From the NCBI GenBank assembly GCA_000432435.1, contig HF993133.1, forward strand, positions 55,428 through 119,427: a stretch of DNA of 64,000 bases, read 5' to 3'. Source of the stretch: Eubacterium sp. CAG:180. GTDB taxonomy: Bacteria; Bacillota; Clostridia; Oscillospirales; Acutalibacteraceae. The position numbers and the translations under genes are program-made. Positions within the stretch are counted from its first letter, which is position 1; each line of letters opens with the position of its first letter. The notes under the pieces are model-generated. The model had not been told where the DNA came from. It did not search any database and saw only the letters and a list, made by a program, of their open reading frames with translations. Of this stretch, positions 9,189 to 45,113 are shown piece after piece.

Positions 9189-10676
9189 ATGTCAGATTCA
9201 CACAAGCTGCAAAGAGCAGCGGTTAAAGTAACGCTTGACAAGGTAATGAAATACATTGACAAGAATCCGCAGGAAAACATCTGCAAAATGCTGTCGGTGG
9301 CGGAAAAGCTAACCAAAAACATATTCCCCGCAGGCAATCTTAAAAAGATGAGGGAAGTCGTCCGGGATGATAATAATGTATGGACCAAGTACGCCCTCGG
9401 CATTTTAAACGACATTGACCGCGATGTAATCAAAAAAATGATTATGGCGTTCGGCTTTGACGCAGGATACTACGGCACAAAGACCGTTCGCAGAAATCGC
9501 GAAAAGCTTCACTGCAACGTGCCGTTCATAATCCTTTTTGACCCCACGAGCGCGTGTAACCTCCACTGCAAGGGCTGTTGGGCTGCGGAATACGGCCACA
9601 AGCAAAGCCTTACGAACGAAGAAATGCAGAGCATAGTCTCTCAGGGCAAGGCACTCGGCACCCATGTATATATGCTCACCGGCGGCGAGCCGCTCATACG
9701 CAAAAACGACATAATAGAGCTTGCCGCAAACAATCAGGATTGCGTATTTTTAATATACACAAACGCAACGCTTGTAGACCAAAAATTCTGTGATGACCTT
9801 AAAAGAGTCGGCAACGTCGCCCTTGCCATGAGCATTGAGGGCACGGAGGAGTCAAACGACTGGCGCCGCGGCGAGGGAGCTTACAATGCCACGCTCAAGG
9901 CGATGGAGCTTCTTAAAAAGAACAAATGCCTCTTCGGCATTTCGGTCTGCTACACGCGCAAAAACGACGAATACGTAACGAGCGACGATTTCATCGACAA
10001 GATGATAGAAAACGGCTCGAAATTCGCATTTTATTTCAACTATATGCCCGTGGGTCACGGTGCCGACAAGGAGCTTATCCCGACTCCCGACCAAAGGGAA
10101 TATATGTACCGCTGGCTTCGCAAAATGCGTAACGGCAAAACGGGTAAGCCGATGTTCGTTATGGATTTCCAGGACGACGGCGAATATGTCGGCGGCTGCA
10201 TAGCGGCAGGCAGAAACTATTTCCACATAAATTCCGCAGGTGACATAGAGCCGTGCGTATTTATACACTATTCCGATACAAATATACGCACTCACACGCT
10301 TCTCGAGGCACTCAAGAGTCCGCTCTTTACCGCATATTACAAGGGTCAGCCGTTTAACGACAATCATTTAAGGCCCTGTCCGATGCTTGAAAATCCCGAG
10401 CTTTTACGCAAAATAGTAAAGGAGAGCGGAGCGCATTCCTCGGACCTTTTAAATAAAGAGGATGTCGATGAGCTTTGCGATAAATGCGTAGACTTTGCAA
10501 AGGAATGGGCACCGCGCGCCGAAAAGCTTTGGAATTCCACAAAGCACCGCGATACGCACACACAGTACTACCGCGACACCGAAGAGGGCAAACGCGAATT
10601 CGGCTGCTCCGGCAACTGTGCCCTCTGTGCTTCGCACGCCGCAGAAGCTTCCGACTCGGAAAAGAAAACGGACTGA
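9189..10676 (+). CDS. Radical SAM enzyme with about 115-aa helical N-terminal extension and Cys-rich SPASM/twitch-like C-terminal region; function unknown
   Basis: 495 aa. CNLHCKGCW (Cx3Cx2C) followed by the GGEPL motif. C-terminal cysteines: C..(18)..C with G-x4-C, CPML, CDKC, CSGNCALC. Confidence 0.85.
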   Translation: MSDSHKLQRAAVKVTLDKVMKYIDKNPQENICKMLSVAEKLTKNIFPAGNLKKMREVVRDDNNVWTKYALGILNDIDRDVIKKMIMAFGFDAGYYGTKTVRRNREKLHCNVPFIILFDPTSACNLHCKGCWAAEYGHKQSLTNEEMQSIVSQGKALGTHVYMLTGGEPLIRKNDIIELAANNQDCVFLIYTNATLVDQKFCDDLKRVGNVALAMSIEGTEESNDWRRGEGAYNATLKAMELLKKNKCLFGISVCYTRKNDEYVTSDDFIDKMIENGSKFAFYFNYMPVGHGADKELIPTPDQREYMYRWLRKMRNGKTGKPMFVMDFQDDGEYVGGCIAAGRNYFHINSAGDIEPCVFIHYSDTNIRTHTLLEALKSPLFTAYYKGQPFNDNHLRPCPMLENPELLRKIVKESGAHSSDLLNKEDVDELCDKCVDFAKEWAPRAEKLWNSTKHRDTHTQYYRDTEEGKREFGCSGNCALCASHAAEASDSEKKTD

Positions 10677-10698
10677 AAACAATAGCTTTAAAAAGCAT

Positions 10699-10736
10699 AA
10701 AGACCGGCTGCAGCATTTTGTTACAGCCGGTCTTTC
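10699..10736 (+). terminator. Rho-independent terminator after the radical SAM gene
   Basis: agaccggctg / cagccggtct 10-bp stem followed by a T-run. Confidence 0.7.
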
Positions 10737-10861
10737 AATTAAGCACCTTTCTGTGCAAATCCGTATATCAAAAAAATCGCCCCGCAATCCTGTGAATAAC
10801 GAAAATGCCCCGCAAAAGGCAGGCGAAGAGTTTGGGCCTCTCTGCCTTTTCAATATACAGA

Positions 10862-10954
10862 AAAAAGGTACCGGGAAAAACCCGATACCTTTGTTGTCTG
10901 TGGGGTACAGAAAAGATGTTTTTATGTTTTTTGTGGATAGAGTTGAACTCTCGG
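10862..10954 (-). repeat. Repeat unit 1: terminator hairpin, about 35-nt conserved spacer, then a tRNA 3'-half-like segment (T-arm-like gagagttcaactct plus tccaca)
   Basis: Direct repeat of the 11137..11230 unit, about 80% identical over roughly 58 bp. The minus-strand reading resembles a tRNA T-arm/acceptor 3' end followed by a terminator. Confidence 0.5.
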
Positions 10955-11041
10955 AATTTTTAATGAAATCGTTCGCGTTGCTCACGATGAAATCAAAACC
11001 TACGGTTTTGATGAAATTTTCGGCTACGCAGAAAATGAAAT

Positions 11042-11132
11042 TAAATCCACCCATCGCCGCAGCGATTTCATACGCTGAAAGCGTATTTCATATTGCGAAG
11101 CAATATTTCACCCACCCGCAAGGGTGGATTTA
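11042..11132. other. Long-range inverted repeat (aaatccaccc ... gggtggattt) enclosing an internal hairpin, preceded by three (g/a)atgaaat(c/t) direct repeats spaced about 23 bp apart
   Basis: Read directly from the sequence; no convincing ORF here (the 58-aa frame lacks an RBS). Confidence 0.4.
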
Positions 11133-11136
11133 GTTG

Positions 11137-11230
11137 AAAAGGACAGATTTCTAACGAAATCTGTCCTTTTCTGTCTGTTGGGTACGAAAAAGATGTTTTT
11201 CCGTTTTTACAGGAGAGAGTTGAACTCTCG
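11137..11230 (-). repeat. Repeat unit 2: terminator hairpin aaaaggacagatttc..gaaatctgtcctttt, conserved spacer, then a tRNA 3'-half-like segment containing the palindrome gagagttgaactctc
   Basis: Second copy of the unit at 10862..10954. Lies immediately outside the island gene cluster, so it is a candidate att-site remnant. Confidence 0.5.
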
Positions 11231-11257
11231 AGCGACTTGCATTTACAAATGATATTT

Positions 11258-12645
11258 TCAGTTATGATCTAAAGCACATTTTATACAAAATCCATTACCG
11301 CCATCATTTTCAATATCAAGTGGAGTTCCACACGCTGGGCAGTAACCTAGCTCCCCAGGCGGTTCTGGTCTATCATTAAAATAGGTTTGCTCTAACTTTC
11401 CTTCACTTATAACTGCGGTTTCATAACTATTATCATCTTCGAAATCATAAAAAACTTCTGCTCCTCGCTCTACTTGCACAATAATCTGTCCTTCAAACAC
11501 ATGGTCTCTTCCATCAGAACGAATAATTTCTCTTGTGTCTTCATCTCTTCCCCAGTATTCATAAGATGTTCCTTCTACAGTTACTTTATAGACAAACTCA
11601 TAGATGGCCGTACTATCATCACGAGCAATTCTTTCTGCTCTAACAAACTCACTCTCAGTAATTTCAAACTCGTCAATTCCTTCGGAACCGATATTTGCTG
11701 ATTCTTCATCAATATACTCAGTAGCGTTATATATTAGTTCTTCTTCAACTGATTCAAAAACACTATTTGCAATCTTTACGCAATAATCATTATCTGTCAT
11801 TCGAAGAGCAATTTCAACTGCATCATTTTTTTCAATATCATAAGCCTCAGAAACATCTGAAAAAAAGTCTTTCGATGTCATAGGAACAATCTGTTGACCG
11901 GTTTTTTCAAATTCCTCGATAAGTTTTGTATGGAATTGTCTGTTTCCATCTATAACCTCCCACCAATCCGCCTTGACATCATCAGTAATAAAAATCAAAT
12001 TGGTTGATTCTTTTTTTGCATACCTTAAAGTTTCCTGCCAAAGTATCAAATCGCTATACATTCGAACGCCATCTTTATTCTTAGCATCTTTGAAGCCAGG
12101 CGGAATTTCGTTTTTATATCTTTTTTGACCTTCTTCACACCAACGATATATATCCTCTTGTGATGGTGCAATCATAACTTGTCCGTTAGTATCTATTGCT
12201 TCAATGAACTTTTCAAGAAAATCATTTCCAGCCCACGAATGTTGAATAAGTCCAAGAGCTGCATGGTCTTCGAAATAATTATCAAGTACAGATTTAACTG
12301 CATCTATTTTTTCTGATAGGTTAATCTTCAAGTCGTCAACATCTTGATACTGTAATCTTTCAAGGCTATGGCACGAATTAATTATCTTCGATTTTGCGGT
12401 TTCTATTTGCTTGGCCGTTTCTTTGCTCGCCTCTTCAATGCGTTTTTCCATTTTGGAAAACTCTCCGCGTTTGTGTTTTTCATACTCCAATCTCACGGTT
12501 GCAGGTAGAATTATATAATTTTTACAGCTTTTAAGCATTCAAGTGCAAACTCAGAGAATTCAGGAGAATACCTATAAATATTTAAAAGTACATTGGTATC
12601 TAAAATCACACGATATCCATTTTCAATCAACTCTTTTATAGTCAT
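11258..12645 (-). pseudogene. PIN-like (PIN_8/DUF4935-type) nuclease-domain protein with C-terminal zinc ribbon, disrupted by a 1-nt frameshift in an A/T homopolymer near 12519-12523
   Basis: A 43-aa frame MTIKELIENGYRVILDTNVLL...ECLKAVKII* has a good RBS (aaggaaag) and a PIN N-terminal motif. It continues in the -1 frame as the 426-aa ORF (NYIILPATVRLEYEKH...IFITDDVKADWW...CPACG..CIKC). One extra A would join the two frames. Confidence 0.6.
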
Positions 12646-12762: not shown

Positions 12763-14430
12763 TTAGTTCAGCATCTGCTCAACTTTCAACCCGCCTACAA
12801 ATACTACCTTTATTTTTTCTTTGGATTCCACCACTACGCATTCGAGAATTTGGCGAATGATTTGATCGTCATAGGTTAGCGGATGATTTTTGAGTCCGTC
12901 AAGTATTGTGTATATTTCATCAAGACGGGATTTTGCGTTTTCTCTTTTCTGCTGTACCTCCGCATACTGAGCAAGCTGCTGTTCCAATCGGCTTTTTTCA
13001 TTCATCAGTTCCGTTGCCTTGGTTTCGTCAAAGCTTTCTACCGTATCGGCGGATATGGCTTTGAGCATTTTATGAAATTCCGCGTCTATTTCTGCTATGC
13101 GAATCTGTATATCAAGGCTTTTATCCTCTGTATCGTTTTGGTCTAGTCCCATACCGATGTGAAGTTTCAGCGTTTTAAGAATATCGGCATTGAGTTTTGC
13201 TGTATCTATAACGGCTGACATAATCGCATTTTGCAGTATGCTTTCTTCAATACTCGGCGAATGGTGGCAGTACTTTTTTCCGTAATCAAGACGGTTGATG
13301 CATCGCCATACGATTTTCTTTTTGCCTTTAGCAGTCCATGTACATCTGCGATACGGTGTTCCGCATTCTCCGCAGACAAGCAGTTCGGTTAAAGCGTATT
13401 TACCTGAATATTTGCCTTGCTCGGTTTTAGTACCAACTTGTTTGACTTTACGCTTGCCAGAACGCCGTGCCATTTCTTCCTGAACTCTGCCGAAAGTAGC
13501 GGAGTCTATAATCGCAGGATGATTGTTTTCTACATAATATTTCGGTCGCTCACCGTTATTGATTTTTACTTTTTTAGTAAGACAGTCCGATATATATGTT
13601 TTGTTAAGCACGGCATCGCCTTTATATTTTTCATTGGTGAGGATAGATTGTATTGTACCTCGAAGCCATGAGCCTTTGTCGGACGGTGTCGGCACACCGT
13701 CCGTATTTAAATCCTCTGCGATTTTTGCAAGGCTGTCGCCTGCGAGAAATCTTTCATATATTCGTTTAACGGTTTCAGCCTGTTCGGGATCAATTTCAGG
13801 TTTGCCGTCTGCACCTTTTCTATAGCCTAAAAACCGTTTGTATTGGAACGGTACATTGCCTTCTTTGGCGCTTTGTGCCTTACCCCATTTAACATTGGCG
13901 CTGATATTTTCCGATTCGCTCTGTGCGATACTGCCGTAGATGGTGATATAAAACTCTGCACCGGGATCGGTACTGTGGATGCCCTGTTCCTCGAAAAATA
14001 CATCTACGCCTAATTCTTTTAGCAATCTTGTGCTTTCAAGGCAGTCGACAGTATTTCGGGCAAAGCGTGATATGGATTTCGTAATAATCATATCAATCTT
14101 GCCACGTTTACACATTTTAATCATGCGTTTAAACTCATCACGTTTCTTAAGACTGGTGCCGGAGATTCCTTTATCAGCGAATATTTCTACCAAAGACCAT
14201 TTTGGCTCACTGTTAATTTTTTCGATGTAGTATTTTGTCTGCACTTCGTAACTATTCAGCTGTTCTTCCTCTTTGGTAGATACACGGCAGTAAGCAGCCA
14301 CCCGAAGCTGTCTGTATGCAGATTTGATTTCATCCTGAATATTAACCTGTGCAGGAATCACATGTACTGATTTCTGTGGTATTACTGCTGTTTGTGTCAT
14401 CGCTCTGCTCCTTTCCGATCTGCTGATCAT
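12763..14430 (-). mobile_element. Large serine recombinase (resolvase catalytic domain, recombinase domain, zinc ribbon, coiled-coil)
   Basis: 555 aa. Catalytic motif YCRVSTKEEEQ; Zn ribbon CGECG..C..C. Start overlaps the upstream recombinase gene by 89 bp. Confidence 0.9.
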
Positions 14431-15259
14431 TTAATAAAATTATGCTTACCGCACCGCCGGTGCTGAATTTAATTGCTTTAACGGTACGGTTGAATAAATC
14501 CATAGAAAATGCTGAAAGCGGACTCGCATTTGCAAAGTCCGCTTTTAATATTTTTGATGTATATTTTTGCGAATCTATATCCTTATATTTTAAAGATACA
14601 CATTCGAGTATCTTTTTCCGCAGGATATTTTTATCAAAGCTGTGACTGTCAAGCACCCTGCTGATTTCATTTTCAAATCTGCGAACATCCAAACTTGGGT
14701 CTTTATCAATATCTGTAATCATTTCAATTGCATCAGAATTGCTGATAACTGTATTTAAACATTGGGTAATACCATATATCAAATCGTTGTCTGATATGCT
14801 GATAATATTTTTACAGTTATCATTTTGACACAGCCACCAATCCTGACATTTTCGATTGCTGTCATGCCGCCTGCACATCTTACTGCAGCATTTTGGACAT
14901 AGTATCGGCACACCGAGATTAAATATATCTGATTTTCTGTCGATGTGCTTCTGCGTATTCTTTTCCGATTTTATCAGCATTAAGGTTTTATGCATATCTT
15001 CGTCTATAATCGGAGGATAGCTACTCGTACCGAGATAACGCTCATCCTCAATGATTCTTTTAATTCTTGATTTATTCCAACCACATACGCCGAGCATATA
15101 TTCAATCTGTTCATTGTTCAGATGTTCTGCAATTTTCAGCAGTGATAATCCGTTGAGGTATTCCGTAAAAATACGTTTGACGGTTTCAGTTTCTTTTTCT
15201 TGGATTGCTATACTGCCATTCTTGTATTGATAGCCGTATGGAATATTACGAATTTTCAC
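14342..15259 (-). mobile_element. Recombinase-domain/zinc-ribbon protein lacking the N-terminal serine catalytic domain (degenerate middle member of a three-recombinase cluster)
   Basis: 305 aa. Begins directly with the recombinase-domain motif (YGYQYKNGSIAIQEKETETVKRIF..), zinc ribbon CPKCCSKMC. No RVS catalytic serine motif. Overlaps both neighbours, indicating translational coupling. Confidence 0.75.
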
Positions 15260-16820
15260 GCCTGCGACACCGTCCTTTCAGTGGAATTTCTTCTGTAAGT
15301 TCAATATCACCGATGAGTTTAAATGTAAGATCTGCGTTGCTGTTCACAGTAATGCCGACTACAATTTTTTCGAACAGCTCTTCATCAAAATTGTTGCTCG
15401 GATCATAAGCTTCGAGGATCTCATTAAGACTGTTCAGCGTATCAAACCACGCATCATTTTCATCATCCGATAACTTTTTCCGTCTTTTTGTTCTGAGCGT
15501 GCTGATTTTATTATTTATCTCAGATGACTGTGCAGAGAATTCCGCAGAATTTATCACTCCGTTGGTATGAAGCCTTGCGATTACAAGATTTTGTGCGGCA
15601 AGGTCGGCAATTTTTTTGTCAATTCTGCGTATTACATCTATATTGTCTGATGTTCTGTTTTGCATTGCTTCAACTTGCCTGATTAAATCACCGAGTAAGG
15701 TTTTTCGATTATCCGTTAACTTTTGAACCAGCATTGTAAAGGTTTCATATACGGCAGTTTCTTTCAGCCTGAGTGGTCTGCAGTCCGTCATGCTTGCAGC
15801 TTTATTGCTGCATAACCAATATGCTGTACCTTTTACAATCTGCCGTCTGAAGGTCATTCCGCAGTCGGGACATCGCATAACTTTTGACAGCAAGTATTTG
15901 CCTTTGCTGTTACTGTAAACATTTTTTCTTGAATTTTGCAATGTCTGAACCGCTTGGTATATTTCGCGGCTTACAATCGGCGGATTGCTGTTTTCCACAT
16001 AGTATTTCGGCAGTTCGCCATGATTCATCTTTCTTTTGAACGGTAAAGTTTCAGTTGTATAGCTCTTTTGGAGCAGAGCATCACCCATATACCGTTCGTT
16101 ATTTAAGATATAGTGTACTGTGGACTCATACCATTTGTCTTTACCATATCTTCTGCTCACGCCTTCGTCATTGAGAATATTCGCAATACTTTGCTTTCCG
16201 ACTCCACTGAGATATAAATCGAATATGCGTCGGATGATGGCAGCTTGCGGTTCGTTAATCATCAATTGTCCGTCTTTTAAAATATATCCGTATGCAGGAT
16301 TGCAACAATTGAATTCACCTGATTCCATCCGCTTTTTATAGCTCCAACGCATATTCCCCGATATGGACTCGCTCTCTTGCTGAGCCGCCATACCGGGGAA
16401 TGTAACGATCATTTCCATATTCAGTTTATCAGTATCAATGCCTTGTTCCTCAAAATACACGCTGATACCGAGTTCCTTCAGCAGTCTGATACATACCAAT
16501 AGCTCCTGCGTATTTCTTGCAAATCGGGATACTGATTTTACAACGATACGATCGATTTTGCCTTTTTTGCAATCACGAATTAACCGATTCAGTTCATCGC
16601 GCTTTTCCATTGAAGTGCCTGTCAGACCTTCATCTGCATATATATCCACCAATTTGTATTCGGGATGCTTTTGCTCATAATCCTTGTAGTATCTGATTTG
16701 TGCGGCGAAGGAGTGCAACTGATCCGCAGAATCGCTTGACACACGGCAATAGGCTGCCAAACGAATGATTTTATTTTCTTCCTTACTCTTAGCCGTTATT
16801 TCTGTTACATTCATAAGCAT
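15246..16820 (-). mobile_element. Large serine recombinase
   Basis: 524 aa. YCRVSSDSADQ catalytic motif, recombinase domain, Zn ribbon CPDCG..C. Confidence 0.9.
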
Positions 16821-17073: not shown

Positions 17074-17442
17074 TTATTTTTCATTTTGTAACCTCTCTAA
17101 ATAGTCAAGACCTAAACTGATTAAGATTGCTTTATCAATCCGTTTCATCTGCCTATCATCCATTTCACCGACAAATCTGCCGAGACGGGATTTGTCGATT
17201 GTTCTTATCTGTTCAAGTAGAACCATGGATTCTTTTTTCATGCAGTCTGATTTAAAAATAACATGTGTCGGAAGGTACGGCTTATCCAGTTCCCCTGTGA
17301 TCGGTGCTACAATTGTAGTTGTGCTATGAAGATTTCCTTTATCGTTCTGCAGGATAACCACAGGGCGGATACCGCCTTGCTCAGAACCCATAACCGGGCA
17401 TAAATTGGCGTAATATATTTCTCCTCGTTTTATTTGTTCCAT
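17074..17442 (-). CDS. mazF: MazF/PemK-family mRNA interferase toxin (type II TA toxin) with no recognisable antitoxin gene upstream
   Basis: 122 aa. GEIYYANL..GSEQGG.RPVVILQND PemK/MazF signature. ggagg RBS present. Upstream neighbour is an ORF-poor GC-rich stretch rather than a MazE/PemI gene. Confidence 0.85.
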   Translation of the reverse strand: MEQIKRGEIYYANLCPVMGSEQGGIRPVVILQNDKGNLHSTTTIVAPITGELDKPYLPTHVIFKSDCMKKESMVLLEQIRTIDKSRLGRFVGEMDDRQMKRIDKAILISLGLDYLERLQNEK

Positions 17443-17919
17443 TTTCCTTGCCTCCGTTAATAAGTAAAAGGCGATCGCTTATCAAAATTGGTAAACGACC
17501 GCCTGTAATTTTGTATCAATCGTTTTGTTATCCGATATTTGAACCACGCCACCCCTCGAATACACGGGAACGCACTTTCCGACCATGCATTTGGCCTCAT
17601 TGGAATTTCACCACTCCGAGGATCTCTCCGAGCCGCTCTCCTTTGTTGCGACGGTCTTATCACGCTCGACTTTAGGACTGAACGGAAGTATCATTATTGC
17701 CTCTGCCTGTCATCGCCTTCGTGCAGATTGCCTGTATCGTCTGAGTCCTGAAGGCACTGAAAATCAATGCGTTCGCTCATGTGGCTCGCCGGTTTTAGCC
17801 GACAGCAGAGGGAATGTAAAAAATGCGCTGTGATATTTACTTTTCAAGGAACAACAGAGGCAAAAGAAATGCCCCTCACTTTCCATGCCGAAAAGTAAGG
17901 GGGTTGATAACCAAAAATT

Positions 17920-33393: not shown

Positions 33394-34710
33394 ATGACAG
33401 AAGGAAATTACATACATCATAAAGAAAAAGGAAAGCATATTGCAGGGCAGATGACTCTGACAGAATTAGCGTCACAGATGCGCAATTCATCAAAAGCAAT
33501 AGAGCGACTGAATATTAAACAGTACAACTGGTGGAACGAAGGTTTACACGGTGTTGCAAGAGCCGGTGTTGCAACCGTATTTCCCCAAGCTATATGCATG
33601 GCTTCAACCTTTGATGAAAAGGCTGTAAAAAAATGTGCAGATATTATTGCAACAGAGGTAAGGGCAAAATTCAATGAGAGTCAAAAGAACGAGGATTACA
33701 GTATATACAAAGGACTTACGCTTTGGTCTCCTAATATAAATATTTTTAGGGATCCACGCTGGGGCAGAGGTCACGAAACCTATGGCGAAGACCCGTATTT
33801 AACCTCCATTCTCGGCTGTGCCTTTATTGAGGGAATACAGGGTGATGACGAAAAATATATGAAAGCCTCTGCATGTGCAAAGCACTTTTGCGTGCACAGC
33901 GGTCCCGAGGGATTAAGGCACACTTTTAATGCCGAAGTGTCCAAAAAGGATTTTTATGAAACTTATATTCCTGCGTTTGAAGCCGCCATTAAAAAAGCAA
34001 AGGTCAGCGGTGTTATGGGAGCATATAACATGGTGAACGGTGAAAGCTGTTGTGCCTCTAACAAGCTTATTGATAAGCTATTAAGAAAAGAATGGGGCTT
34101 TGACGGTTACTATGTTTCGGATTGCTCTGCAATATTAGATGTTATATATAAACACAAGAAAACATTAAATCCAGCAAAAGGCGCCGCGATGGCAGTAAAT
34201 GCAGGTTGCGACCTTGAATGCGGAGTAGTATATTCATTATTGCCTGTATCCGTTAAGTTGGGATATACAAATAAAGAAGCCTTAAAAAAGTCTGTATCGA
34301 GGCTGATGGCAATTCGCAGTGCTCTCGGAATGTTTGATAAGGATTGCCCTTATAACGAAATAAGTATTAGTGATAATGCAACACCCGAGCACGAAAGCGA
34401 AGCAGTTAGAATGGCAGAAAAAGGAATTGTACTTTTAGAAAATGACGGTATACTTCCCCTTAAAGAAAACGCACAGAAAATCTTGATCACAGGATTTAAT
34501 GCTGATAACAAGTTGGCTTACCTCGGAAATTATTTTGGAGATCCGTCGCATTTTGTTATGGTTACAGAAGCTATTTCACAATATAACATTGATACTGAAT
34601 TTATAAGAGGCATACATCTTTATAATCAAAGCACAAAACATGACAAGGAAACAGCATTAAAATCTGCAGCAGAATCGGATATTATCATTATGTGCACAGG
34701 GCAGACATAA
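33394..34710 (+). pseudogene. GH3 glycoside hydrolase (beta-glucosidase/beta-hexosaminidase family), N-terminal catalytic domain only, truncated at a rearrangement junction
   Basis: 438 aa. Contains the GH3 motifs RDPRWGRGHETYGEDPYL and KHF..HSGPE, but ends abruptly where GH3 enzymes normally continue for about 300 more residues. Confidence 0.7.
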
Positions 34711-35302
34711 AAAGCAGAGCGGCGGACACGGTCAGTTCGGCGATGTATTTATTGAATTTGAACCTTGCCAAAGCGAAGAACTTGAGTTTGCAGAAAGAGT
34801 TGTCGGCGGCTCCGTTCCCAAAAACTTCTTCCCTGCCGTTGAAAAAGGCTTGAGAGAGTCTATACAAAAAGGTGTAGTTGCAGGCTATCCTATGGTTGGA
34901 ATAAAAGCAACTCTTTACGACGGCTCATATCACCCTGTTGACTCATCGGAAATGAGTTTTAAAATTGCGGCAAGTCTTGCTTATAAAAACGGTATTCCTC
35001 AGGCAAATCCTGTTTTACTTGAGCCTGTCGGCACACTTAAAGCACTTTGCAATGACGAAGCAATGGGCGATATTATCGGCGACATCAACAAAAGACGAGG
35101 CAGAGTTCTCGGTATGACTCCTCAAGGCAACGGAATGCAGGAAATTTTGGCTGAAGTTCCTATCGGAGAAATGGCGTCGTTCCCGACTTCCATGCGTCAG
35201 ATTACTCAAGGCAGAGGCAGTTTTGAAATTGAATTTGCACGCTACGAAAAAGTGCCTGAACACATTGCTCAAAAAATTATTGAAGACTCAAAAGAAGAAT
35301 AA
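34691..35302 (+). pseudogene. 3' fragment of an EF-G-like (fusA-type) translation factor gene (domains IV-V), with no start codon
   Basis: Frame open from 34661. AQGRHKKQSGGHGQFGDV..VVAGYPMVGIKATLYDGSYHPVDSSEMSFKIAASLA..VLLEPV..AEVP..QGRGSFEIEF matches the EF-G C-terminal third. Begins out of frame exactly at the GH3 truncation point. Confidence 0.7.
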
Positions 35303-42384: not shown

Positions 42385-42603
42385 TTCAATTGCCTGATTT
42401 TAAATTTATTAAGTCGCACAATCATTATTCATCCGCAGATATTTTTATTAAAAAAATATGAATTTAACTTTGAGTTTTGATAAAACAACAATATCAAAAT
42501 CTTTTTCTTTGCTTGGCGTTCGCTCCCATCAGTGCGTTCGAATCCACTTTTTAAAATTGCACATATAAAAGAAAAAAGACACTGCAAAAAGCAATGTCTT
42601 TTT

Positions 42604-42679
42604 TGGTGGACCTGAAGAGATTCGAACTCTCGACTTCTACAATGCGAATGTAGCACTCTCCCAGCTGAGCTACAGGCCC
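42604..42679 (-). tRNA. tRNA-Ala (anticodon CGC) with encoded CCA, followed by a terminator hairpin
   Basis: The minus strand reads GGGCCTGTAGCTCAGCTGGGAGAGTGCTACATTCGCATTGTAGAAGTCGAGAGTTCGAATCTCTTCAGGTCCACCA. This folds as a cloverleaf with the G3:U70 alanine identity pair and anticodon loop TTCGCAT. Terminator at 42575..42603. Confidence 0.85.
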
Positions 42680-42848: not shown

Positions 42849-45113
42849 TTATTTCTGCTTTTTCTTAATCTTGTTAAGGCTTGCGTTGATTTCAAGGATT
42901 TGTTCCTTTGTAAACAAGCCGCCTGCCATCATACATACGCGCTTGACGCTGAAGCCCTTGCCCATTTCTATCATACTCTTGTTGATTTTCATACCCTTTG
43001 CCATATCCGCCATACCGCCTGTGGACTTGCCCTTGTTCTTTTTCATATTGGCACGAACCATTTTGAGAATTTTCAAAGCGAGCAATTTGCCCTTTGCGGT
43101 AGCCAAAATATCGCCTATGGTGTCGTTTACGCTCATATATCCCGGCGGAGTCTCGATTTCAAACCAGTTGATAACCGCGCCCTCCTCCTGCAATACATAG
43201 TCGGGATTCGCCTTATCGACCTTGCGTATGCGGCTCTCGTCGGTACAGTCGCCCGCCTTTGCCGTAAGCACGGTTTCGCCCTCGTTCGGTACCGAGAAGT
43301 AAAAGAACGGAAATTCCCCGCGCTTTTGCACGCCGATGCTCTTGCCGTTTGCAAAAAGCTCAACGGACGGCTCGTTTGTATAAACCGTGACGCTCGTCAC
43401 GCTTTCGGGGCGGTCAATATAGCGTTTACCGCAGATGTGCACAAACGGTTCATCCGACAACCACGCCTTATATGCATAAAAAGAGTCCTTTTTATATTTC
43501 CTGTCGAACGTAACAAGGCCCTTGTGATTCATTCCGTTCTCGCCGCCCTCGCTGCGTGCGTCTGCGGCAAAGTCAAACATATTCCAGACGTGAGTTGACC
43601 AAAGCCACGGGCGAACGGCAATCTGACGAATTACATCCTCGTGATATTTTGCCTGGTATTCTTCGGTGTAATCGCCCTGCTGCGGGTCGGAGGTATGCCA
43701 ATTAAGAGCCTCACAGCCGTATTCGCTCATACCGACGGCACGGTCGGGATATTTTTTATGGAACTTATCGAACCACGGCCCGTACATATCGGTCTTGCCG
43801 CCGTACCAACCGAAATAGTGATTGTAAGACAAAACGTCGGGAATCCTGACATACTCCTCGCCCGGGTCGCACATACTGAGCACCGCTATTGTGGTGGGGC
43901 GCGTCGGGTCGATTTTATGCACCAAATCATTGAGCATACGGTGATTTTCGATAAGCGACGAATCAGACGCACCGTTCATGGTAATTTCATTTGACAAGCC
44001 CCAAACTATTATGCTCGGATGATTTATATTCTGATAAATCAGCTCCTTCATCTGGCTTACGGTATTTTCTCTGCCGCCCGGCATATGCCGCGAAATGTAC
44101 GGTATCTCGGCCCAAACCGCCATACCGCGCTCATCGCATAGGTCATAAAAGACTCTACTGTGCTGATAATGTGCAAGCCGTATGGTATTAGCACCCAATT
44201 CGCATATCAAATCCATATCCTCACGGTGTTCTTTTTCGGTGAGCGCGTTGCCTATGCCTGGTCTGTCCTGATGCCTCGAAACACCGCGCAGAGGGCAAGG
44301 CTTACCGTTGAGGATAAATCCCTTTTGCGGGTCTATGGAAAAGCTGCGGCAGCCGAACCTTACCGAAATTTCGTCTGTTTTTTCTCCGTCCTTCAAAAGC
44401 TCCGCTGTAAGAGAGTAAAGATACGGGTCCTGAGTGCCGTTCCACAGATGCGCGTTTTCGATTTCTATAACCGTCTTTCCGTCGGACGCATCGACGCTCT
44501 TTTCGCCCACGGGCTTTTTATCCGCGTCCGTCACGACAAAACGAACGGAGCAGTCCTGCGGATTTGTGACCCTCGCGGTTATATTGACAGCTGCGGACAA
44601 GCCGGTTACCTTCGGGGTTATCATAATTCCCGACGAGCCGTAAAACTCAAGGTCAAAGTGGCTTTCATCGACTCCGATAACCGTTACGTCGCGGTAAATT
44701 CCGCCGTAAAACGTAAAGTCGGCAACCTGCGGATACACCGTGTCGTTCGGGCTGTTATCGGCGTAAACCGTGAGTATGTTTTCATCCGAAATTTCCGGAA
44801 TCCTTACACGGAATGCAGAATATCCGCCGTCGTGTGAACCTATTTTTTCGCCGTTCCACCAGACCTCGGCACTGCTGTTTACACCGTCAAACTGAATGTA
44901 GTGCACGGGCTTTTCGCCCAATTCCGCTTTTTTAAGCAGCTTTACATAGCAGCATTTGCCCCTGTAATAATCGTTTCCGCCGTCCTGACCGTCGGTGCCG
45001 TTCCAGGTGTGCGGCAGGTTGACGCTTTCCCAATCCTCCGGCAGAGTTTTAGGCACAGGCTGCTCTTTTTTTGAAAAAAGCCAATTTTTGTTTATATTTA
45101 TTACTTCTCGCAT
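42849..45113 (-). CDS. GH2 family glycoside hydrolase (beta-galactosidase/beta-mannosidase/beta-glucuronidase type) with a Lys/Met-rich C-terminal tail
   Basis: 754 aa. GH2 TIM-barrel signatures (WSTHVWNMFDFAADARSEGGENGMNHKGLVTFDRK, acid/base NE, nucleophile E regions). Confidence 0.8.
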   Translation of the reverse strand: MREVININKNWLFSKKEQPVPKTLPEDWESVNLPHTWNGTDGQDGGNDYYRGKCCYVKLLKKAELGEKPVHYIQFDGVNSSAEVWWNGEKIGSHDGGYSAFRVRIPEISDENILTVYADNSPNDTVYPQVADFTFYGGIYRDVTVIGVDESHFDLEFYGSSGIMITPKVTGLSAAVNITARVTNPQDCSVRFVVTDADKKPVGEKSVDASDGKTVIEIENAHLWNGTQDPYLYSLTAELLKDGEKTDEISVRFGCRSFSIDPQKGFILNGKPCPLRGVSRHQDRPGIGNALTEKEHREDMDLICELGANTIRLAHYQHSRVFYDLCDERGMAVWAEIPYISRHMPGGRENTVSQMKELIYQNINHPSIIVWGLSNEITMNGASDSSLIENHRMLNDLVHKIDPTRPTTIAVLSMCDPGEEYVRIPDVLSYNHYFGWYGGKTDMYGPWFDKFHKKYPDRAVGMSEYGCEALNWHTSDPQQGDYTEEYQAKYHEDVIRQIAVRPWLWSTHVWNMFDFAADARSEGGENGMNHKGLVTFDRKYKKDSFYAYKAWLSDEPFVHICGKRYIDRPESVTSVTVYTNEPSVELFANGKSIGVQKRGEFPFFYFSVPNEGETVLTAKAGDCTDESRIRKVDKANPDYVLQEEGAVINWFEIETPPGYMSVNDTIGDILATAKGKLLALKILKMVRANMKKNKGKSTGGMADMAKGMKINKSMIEMGKGFSVKRVCMMAGGLFTKEQILEINASLNKIKKKQK

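Follow-up and report, generated by a model that had tools for sequence, protein, structure and literature searches.

Putative attachment-site arms of two tandem elements behind a tRNA-Ala gene of Eubacterium sp. CAG:180, and the Gut-1 RNA motif between them

What are the two similar repeats that lie side by side in an intergenic region of Eubacterium sp. CAG:180, and why do they mark the edge of a block of DNA with a different base composition? The region is part of a 64,000-nucleotide stretch (contig HF993133.1, positions 55,428 to 119,427; hereafter the window), in which it occupies positions 10677-11257, between convergent genes for a radical-SAM/SPASM protein (9189-10676, plus strand) and a PIN_8-domain protein (11258-12538, minus strand). 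A preliminary description, made from the sequence alone, took the repeats for partial copies of a tRNA 3' end left behind by sequential integrations. We find that the two units are very probably the right-end arms (P arms) of two attR attachment sites, which belong to two mobile elements integrated in tandem at the CCA of a tRNA-Ala(CGC) gene: a 31.4-kb genomic island that ends in unit A and a 277-bp mini-element that ends in unit B. The boundaries are exact, and the mini-element is multi-copy, has no open reading frame (ORF) and lies directly after the CCA of at least five tRNA species.

Two elements at one tRNA 3' end

Boundaries were compared with other assemblies of the same species. Thousands of gut assemblies contain the PIN, radical-SAM and GH2 proteins (the PIN protein is indexed in 15,720 blocks of the assembly collection); individual loci are cited by L numbers. 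Read on the minus strand, the window runs from tRNA-Ala, the sole tRNA called in it, into the island and unit A, then through the mini-element and unit B to the native terminator of the tRNA:

42604..42679, minus strand: tRNA-Ala(CGC), called by ARAGORN, 62.7 bits with the Rfam tRNA model, also at the empty site in L024
11172..42603, minus strand: genomic island of 31.4 kb, absent as a single block from L024, supported by GC content and Pfam annotation
42571..42603, minus strand: island left end (P' arm), aaaaagacattgctttttgcagtgtcttttttc, from junction comparison
11172..11230, minus strand: unit A, right-end arm (P arm) of the island, from repeat and motif searches and junction comparison
11216-11230, minus strand: T-arm-like block of unit A, followed by an A-rich stretch and then the inner 24-mer
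11172-11195, minus strand: inner 24-mer of unit A, CATCTTTTTCGTACCCAACAGACA, with the junction right after its terminal CA
10895..11171, minus strand: non-autonomous mini-element of 277 bp, absent in L010, alone in L100, 62 full copies found
10895..10953, minus strand: unit B, right-end arm (P arm) of the mini-element, from repeat and motif searches and junctions
10939-10953, minus strand: T-arm-like block of unit B
10895-10918, minus strand: inner 24-mer of unit B, CATCTTTTCTGTACCCCACAGACA
10864..10894, minus strand: native tRNA-Ala terminator, acaaaggtatcgggtttttcccggtacctttttt (right half of attB, B'), from the empty site in L024 and the terminator scan

Empty, mini-element-only, island-only and doubly occupied versions of the site are all found in public assemblies. 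An island-free relative of the kind that the preliminary description had proposed to align is L024, where tRNA-Ala (...tccacca, cttcaggtccacca) is followed directly by acaaaggtatcggg... (acaaaggtatcgggtttttcccggtacctttttt), the sequence that stands behind unit B in the window, and where the GH2 gene (window 42849-45113) adjoins the radical-SAM region. In the window, tRNA-Ala is followed by aaaaagacattgctttttgcagtgtctttttt instead of the native terminator. Window positions 10895-42603 are therefore inserted DNA. The GC content of this insert is 38.7%, compared with 47.0% and 48.5% in the flanks (38.4% in the recombinase module, 38.8% in the rest of the island and 39.4% in the mini-element), and the island is compositionally foreign. 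Its contents comprise carbohydrate-use genes (18.6-42 kb, based on Pfam), a sigma factor, a PemK toxin, three serine recombinase genes and the PIN_8 gene.

The single-element loci are equally precise. L010 has the island only, with unit A joined straight to the native terminator and exactly 277 bp missing, and L100 has tRNA-Ala, then the 277-bp mini-element, then the native terminator, with no island. Both elements are present in the window and in seven other loci. L010 and L100 thus show the intermediate states of the two sequential integrations that the paired repeats had first suggested. The integration point is the 3' CCA of tRNA-Ala(CGC), the left half of attB that now lies within attL. 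The island left end directly follows this CCA in 11 loci and carries an element-supplied terminator hairpin that takes the place of the native one. The junctions (marked by a slash) are as follows:

attB, empty site: ...tccacCA/acaaagg
attL: ...tccacCA/aaaaaga
island to mini-element: ...aacagaCA/gaaaagg
mini-element to flank (attR): ...cacagaCA/acaaagg

CA is the sole sequence common to all of them, and more than 20 different right flanks share only this dinucleotide. A shared central dinucleotide, clean hybrids and no longer duplication are the pattern of serine-integrase attachment sites. From the junctions and occupancy states together, unit A is therefore the right arm of the island and unit B that of the 277-bp element, and the placing of attachment-site sequences at the island edge in the preliminary description agrees with the breakpoints in other assemblies. 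Unit A has one and the same breakpoint in the window, L010 and L003/L006. What adjoins it at this nucleotide in L003/L006 is the flank found behind a mini-element at tRNA-Arg(CCG) in L118 (99.3% identity over 2 kb). In L041, a second element with a recombinase triplet stands between tRNA-Ala and the island left end (junction ...cttcaCA/aaaaagacattgc). A search for an inverted copy of the arm at the other island end (up to 3 mismatches) gave only three 3-mismatch matches elsewhere in the window, at chance level, and the island boundary was therefore taken from the empty site.

The units form a direct repeat of 66 nt (10888-10953 and 11165-11230, found by a repeat search of the window) with 83% identity and a spacing of 277 bp. 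Behind each one is a terminator-like hairpin on the minus strand (11136-11171, with 16 perfect pairs, and 10864-10892), as first described; the terminator scan gave 7 such sites vs 0.6 in shuffles. These hairpins, at first read as unit-specific, lie outside the units: the first is the left end of the mini-element and the second is the native tRNA-Ala terminator. An inner block, AAAAACATCTTTTNNGTACCCNACAGACA, occurs exactly twice in the 64 kb vs 0.00 times expected, and the inner 24-mers of mini-element and island arm are identical at 21 of 24 positions. Exact copies of the T-arm-like 14-mer GAGAGTTCAACTCT are confined to units A and B in the window. With up to 2 mismatches this 14-mer also matches the T-arm of tRNA-Ala(CGC) (5 matches vs 0.26 expected), and when unit A is aligned locally to the 3' end and T-arm of tRNA-Ala, 16 of 18 positions are identical in the best alignment; of 2000 shuffles, no more than one scored as well. 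The full tRNA anticipated at the opposite island boundary stands there as tRNA-Ala (42604-42679), whose T-arm matches.

The resemblance does not make the units partial tRNA copies. The tRNA end and the element end share CA alone at every junction, and the units are no target duplications but element-borne arms that occur at many different tRNA loci. Neither ARAGORN nor the Rfam tRNA model (E<=10) calls a tRNA or pseudo-tRNA between 10000 and 12000, and the reading of the units as pseudo-tRNAs was rejected. The T-arm-like block (CGAGRGTTCRAHTC) is kept in the arms of every lineage aligned and is also found in a diverged Gut-1 subfamily, at a tRNA-like distance from a terminal ACA; in unit B, ...tccaCAaaaaacat resembles the present-day attL sequence ...tccaccaaaaaagacat. 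We infer that the block is either a conserved mimic of a tRNA 3' end or the fossil of an older tRNA-Ala junction, and no fresh duplication. The palindrome GAGAGTTgAACTCTC, with 7-bp arms and once suggested as a recombinase crossover core, is present in unit A; all breakpoints fall about 45 nt beyond it, at the terminal CA of ...ACAGACA, and it was rejected in that role.

The 277-bp mini-element and the Gut-1 motif

The interval between the units is no spacer: it contains the Gut-1 RNA motif, which the preliminary description had missed. In order, the mini-element consists of the three features below and unit B, with no credible ORF:

11136..11171, minus strand: terminator 1, forming the left end (P' arm) of the mini-element, a hairpin with a perfect 16-bp stem and an A/T tract on either side
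11060..11136, minus strand: Gut-1 RNA motif (RF01706), found with cmscan, three hairpins separated by UGAAAU
10961..11046, plus strand: inverted Gut-1-like half, 33 bits with cmscan (E=4.3e-4, below the gathering score), its hairpins separated by AUUUCA on the tRNA-sense strand

A metagenome scan for terminator 1 preceded by anything but unit A returned 84 loci, and terminator 1 lies directly after CCA in at least 75 loci. By tRNA species, the mini-element follows the exact 3' end of Arg(ACG) in 29 cases, Leu(GAG) in 9, Arg(CCG) in 9, Ala(CGC) in one and Arg(CCT) in 14 full genes, to which are added about 16 partial 3' halves of tRNA-Arg(CCT) left by other elements. The terminator of the respective tRNA resumes after 277 bp in nearly all measurable copies (the exceptions being one of 253, one of 269 and two of 278), and a minority of copies end in a variant terminus such as ACAGCCA. 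The 62 full copies mostly have 0-3 mismatches and represent 29 distinct sequences, of which 24 depart from the window copy at 0-5 of its 277 positions. Three copies lie on one 464-kb contig, and two are in tandem after tRNA-Leu in L080. The lack of a recombinase gene, the shared ends, the presence/absence polymorphism and the several sites identify it as a non-autonomous integrative mini-element. Its sequence begins with GAAAAGGACAG... and closes with ...CCCCACAGACA, which do not form a pair of inverted repeats, so that it does not qualify as a miniature inverted-repeat transposable element (MITE). The preliminary description had held that a widespread intergenic repeat family unrelated to island boundaries would speak against its proposal; the repeat is indeed widespread, but it always lies at tRNAs or island boundaries.

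Two further features of the copies were observed. In L096 (12566 and 14282) a full tRNA-Arg(CCT) is followed 1.7 kb on by a partial 3' half with a mini-element behind each, and mini-elements therefore sit also behind partial tRNA copies left by other elements. A 9-bp inverted repeat, CTTTTCTGT...ACAGAAAAG, spans joined mini-element ends (e.g. L080 7010-7045) and is centred about 8 nt left of the junction; joined island ends would have TCTTTTT...AAAAAGA. This attP dyad symmetry was rejected as a mark of the crossover because ACAGACA is absent from the empty site.

The Gut-1 match covers the full model (positions 1-77 of 77; 92.3 bits vs a gathering score of 50, E=4.6e-19), which makes it a member of RF01706, and the same match is found in L087, L113 and L116. 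Gut-1 was first described in 2010 as a candidate small RNA (sRNA) from human-gut metagenomes only, with no function (Weinberg et al. 2010, PMC2864571), and the literature searched on Gut-1/RF01706 gave this paper alone and nothing later. The motif in the window is the same full-length motif (92 bits), whereas its position after a tRNA CCA, the inverted second half and the att-like ends were not remarked in that description (PMC2864571). The 2010 seed alignment, taken with its flanks, includes this very mini-element and an island to mini-element junction of the window type. Of the 43 seed sequences, 17 have CCA and then (G/A)GAAAA ahead of the left terminator, among them diverged subfamilies that follow other tRNAs. 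From one subfamily to another, the forward heptamer changes along with the inverted one (GUGAAAU/AUUUCAC and GUGAUAU/AUAUCAC). Compared with shuffled sequences, the 277 nt fold much better on either strand (z = -7.4 and -6.8). A scan of 10650-11320 gave no promoter-like site, and a strong bidirectional terminator immediately precedes the motif. Among the copies, the loop of terminator 1 occurs in both orientations, GUUA (window 11136-11171) and UAAC (seed sequence BAAY01000734), on an unchanged 16-bp stem; this hairpin has therefore been flipped.

For this subfamily, it is nearly established that Gut-1 forms the core of a mini-element at tRNA ends; for diverged subfamilies, the 17 of 43 seed sequences support it. 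A further step, which we offer only tentatively and consider rather less likely than its negation, is that Gut-1 is a conserved cis-acting core that the tRNA-CCA mini-elements need for their own propagation and no free-standing sRNA gene. The forward-then-inverted hairpin array with its heptamer spacing might serve, on whichever strand, as an origin or transfer signal in single-stranded form, or it might have an architectural role and make synapsis and circularisation possible for a segment of 277 bp.

Recombinases, proposed mechanism and alternatives

The island carries a set of serine recombinase genes next to unit A, separated from it by the PIN_8 gene:

12763..16820, minus strand: serine recombinase gene triplet, from Pfam, catalytic motif and NCBIfam
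15246-16820, minus strand: recombinase 1, 524 amino acids, PF00239+PF07508+PF13408
14342-15259, minus strand: recombinase 2 (middle), 305 amino acids, PF07508 only, no catalytic domain
12763-14430, minus strand: recombinase 3, 555 amino acids, PF00239+PF07508+PF13408
11258..12538, minus strand: PIN_8-domain protein (Pfam), between the last recombinase gene and the island end

The 524- and 555-amino-acid proteins are large serine recombinases, with Resolvase, Recombinase and Zn_ribbon_recom domains and the nucleophilic serine in a YCRVS(S/T) motif (AAYCRVSS and AAYCRVST). Their nearest NCBIfam models are CcrB, CcrC and XisF, far below cut-off (126-132 bits vs 900 for Ccr). Pfam searches found no other recombinase, and no tyrosine recombinase, among island ORFs of at least 100 amino acids. 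L014 contains the same triplet (84-94% amino-acid identity), and its arm lies 2.9 kb downstream. In L041 and L113 both the triplets (42-72% amino-acid identity) and the arms have diverged; these arms still end in CA and abut, in L041, the island left end by tRNA-Ala and, in L113, the left end of a mini-element. More diverged triplets thus go with diverged arms, and all arms end in CA. A scan of a genome collection found the arm 24-mer in 11 loci of metagenome-assembled genomes (MAGs) from diverse other Clostridia, with a different terminator behind each; none of these loci matches the window flanks, and the stretch upstream of the arm in L012 is masked. A micro-element of about 97 nt, made up of a terminator and the 24-mer only, lies at two tRNAs of one MAG, which suggests that the 24-mer is a functional half-site.

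From these comparisons we propose that the three-gene recombinase set of the island catalyses recombination with a 2-bp crossover at the CA of the tRNA's CCA; a serine-recombinase crossover at this position would fit the shared dinucleotide. The mini-element would be mobilised in trans by the island recombinases, given that it shares the inner 24-mer arm with the island. Specificity would be determined mainly by the segment from the T-arm to the CCA, and the other side, the A-rich start of a terminator, would be only loosely defined. In the target tRNAs, GTTCRARTC stands at a constant distance from CCA; the partners on the right, native terminators or left ends of elements, have nothing but an A-rich start in common. 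With so loose a right side, the tRNA-proximal junction would stay a target and arrays would grow next to the tRNA. Arrays next to a tRNA are found in the window, L041, L080, L087, L113 and L116. Each element starts with its own terminator, and the tRNA gene therefore stays intact and terminated.

Several other explanations were weighed against two site-specific integrations. The 277-bp unit could be a transposase-driven MITE or a palindromic element of the IS200/IS605 insertion-sequence type that happens to prefer tRNA ends and is unrelated to the serine recombinases, the islands having captured the same end. A short, hairpin-rich, ORF-less and multi-copy unit inserted 3' of a short target (CCA) with a 2-bp repeat would suit such an element. 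Terminal inverted repeats, however, are lacking, and in the loci examined the genes beside the arms gave no transposase. In addition, the same inner arm and CA junction recur in triplet islands of three diverged lineages, in which arm and recombinase diverge together, and we regard this explanation as unlikely. We give still less credence to a classic tRNA-targeting island with a tyrosine-type integrase, in which the units would be duplicated 3' segments of the target tRNA at attR. The near-identical T-arm of tRNA-Ala at the far boundary speaks for it, and partial tRNA-Arg(CCT) 3' halves of the classic kind do occur in metagenome loci, but the empty-site comparison already largely refutes it. 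At the junction, the tRNA end and the element end have only CA in common, the T-arm-like block lies 45 nt from the junction and is only 16/18 identical, the same units flank five unrelated tRNAs, and no tyrosine recombinase was found among the island ORFs; neither the identical tRNA 3' repeat nor the tyrosine integrase of a classic tRNA-integrating island is thus found here.

It is highly improbable that the units are functional RNA modules, that is a conserved 3' untranslated region or sRNA seed with a variable terminator, duplicated in place without being recombination sites. The 24-mer does always precede a terminator hairpin of varying sequence; the empty site, however, reveals these variable terminators as the native ones of different tRNAs, the presence/absence breakpoints fall exactly after ACAGACA, and no promoter is predicted. 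The least probable of the explanations, to which we give next to no weight, is local tandem duplication or homologous recombination between dispersed repeats without any site-specific enzyme. Direct repeats with 83% identity can recombine, and swapped pairs of tRNA and flank suggest repeat-mediated exchange or assembly mis-joins. The deletion in L010, however, has its end-point in the last 7 identical nt and not in the longer identical runs (13-15 nt), insertions are found at five unrelated tRNAs without a shared flank, and the length is 277 bp in nearly every copy.

Some points weigh against tandem integration by the recombinase triplet, which we nevertheless prefer. The catalytic role proposed for the triplet draws on its adjacency to the arm and its co-variation with it. 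To our knowledge, canonical serine integrases do not use attL as a target, and growth of the array on the tRNA side would therefore need relaxed specificity. The island has neither conjugation nor phage genes that would account for its movement between cells. The state in L003/L006 (contigs of GCA_964261755.1) could be a chromosomal rearrangement rather than a second integration. Excision of the island should yield a circle junction, ...CCCAACAGACA/AAAAAGACATTGC, and a restored site, tRNA-Ala...CCA/ACAAAGGTATC; the circular junction (arm/aaaaagacattgc) is absent from all fetched loci except the L041 tandem. The attP-like junctions of the mini-element (unit B/terminator 1) are found in L062 and L080 only and could be tandem copies, not circles. 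Some loci pair one tRNA with the flank of another across the mini-element, e.g. tRNA-Arg(CCT) with the tRNA-Arg(ACG) flank, and these may be assembly mis-joins across a 277-bp repeat or repeat-mediated rearrangements.

Related systems and neighbouring features

The closest parallels each share part of this arrangement. In the staphylococcal cassette chromosome elements (SCC/SCCmec), Ccr large serine recombinases integrate at the 3' end of a conserved gene, rlmH, without inactivating it, and the pseudo-SCC elements of SCC arrays, although recombinase-less, have the same att repeats and are mobilisable in trans. The window similarly has a tandem array with a recombinase-less passenger, and its recombinases score best on CcrB/CcrC models. 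In contrast to SCC, integration here is at the CCA end of several tRNA genes, the recombinase genes number three, of which one lacks the catalytic domain, the passenger is a multi-copy, ORF-less element of 277 bp, and the junctions share 2 bp rather than a longer core. The cis-mobilizable elements (CIMEs) found with ICESt1 and ICESt3 are att-bounded non-autonomous elements in tandem with an autonomous one, excisable alone or together; they depend on a tyrosine recombinase, are confined to one locus (fda) and are deletion derivatives in the kb range. As with CIMEs, the passenger here is bounded by att sites of the autonomous element and in tandem with it, whereas its 277-bp length, high copy number and conserved structured core set it apart.

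Serine integrase triplets are known from streptococcal integrative and conjugative elements (ICEs), which insert into and disrupt mutT, traG and hsdM (Ambroset et al. 2016, PMC4701971). Both systems have three adjacent serine recombinase genes at an element extremity, conserved as a set, while the target here is a tRNA 3' end that is kept intact and the island lacks a conjugation module (PMC4701971). tRNA genes are integration hot spots with tandem arrays and site restoration (Mageeney et al. 2020, PMC7192596; tycheposons, bioRxiv 10.1101/2020.12.28.424599), and tandem arrays of unrelated elements at a tRNA are a likeness to those islands (PMC7192596; bioRxiv 10.1101/2020.12.28.424599). Such islands overwhelmingly use tyrosine integrases and duplicate a tRNA segment, in contrast to the junction after the last tRNA base and the 2-bp identity observed here.

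The features are thus known singly from ICE triplets, SCC and CIMEs, and tRNA islands; their combination is new, and Gut-1 is given a genomic identity. The motif, without context since 2010, is now placed inside a small mobile element of human-gut metagenome assemblies. The three-gene serine recombinase system appears to target the T-arm-to-CCA end of several tRNA genes, leaving them undamaged. This type of target is unlike those reported for known triplets and could be of interest for multi-site or programmable integrases. Through the mini-elements, several tRNA loci come to share repeats of 277 bp, and the cargo by the island arm is variable and defence-like; both are likely drivers of strain-level variation in this bacterium.

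The slot occupied by the PIN_8 gene has a variable, defence-like content. In its place are TIR genes in L014 and L016 (L014 3498-6195, a TIR protein and two unknown proteins), a DUF4062 gene with a kinase in L011 (1101-3031) and a gene for an EAD9-domain protein in L012 (47-586), and in L041 and L113 no gene separates the last recombinase gene from the right arm. The PIN_8 protein has a C-terminal zinc-ribbon-like CxxC...CxxC motif. PADLOC gave no match for the PIN, recombinase, PemK or sigma proteins of the window. Inside the recombinase module, a pemK RNA motif (17597-17697, minus strand, 73.5 bits) lies upstream of the PemK/MazF toxin gene (17074-17442, minus strand), and a small sigma-like protein is also encoded upstream of the triplet; the pemK RNA motif and a sigma-like gene recur in the diverged module of L113 (5958-6076).

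Further into the island, an ORF of 150 amino acids (34850-35302, plus strand) matches only the C-terminal EF-G domains IV-V (212 bits with an EF-G subfamily model, positions 541-687 of 692), and the match of the C-terminal domain ends early in the adjacent GH3 gene (33394-34710, plus strand). Both look like gene fragments within the island. Inverted tRNA-like fragments, gtggattcgaacgcac and gggattcgaacccgtgagg, lie just inside or beside element ends, on the strand opposite to the target tRNA (window about 42515-42550, at the island left end, and L012 about 1340-1370).

The tRNA-Ala gene is a hot spot for several element families. In L033 and L036 (from 6511), an unrelated element stands after the same tRNA-Ala CCA (junction cca/atttaatcgcagg) and encodes SprT-like, HTH, DUF6273 and N6-methyltransferase proteins, and in L042 a TnpV/sigma/MobA element takes the place of the first ~140 nt of the island. 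A repeat of about 100 nt, gcctcccttgtaaagggaggtgg...ggcaactcggagggatt..., is a separate small repeat family; it is present in one or two copies in some strains (L024 7620-7850 and L010 11420-11545), between the native tRNA-Ala terminator and the radical-SAM gene, where the window has no copy.

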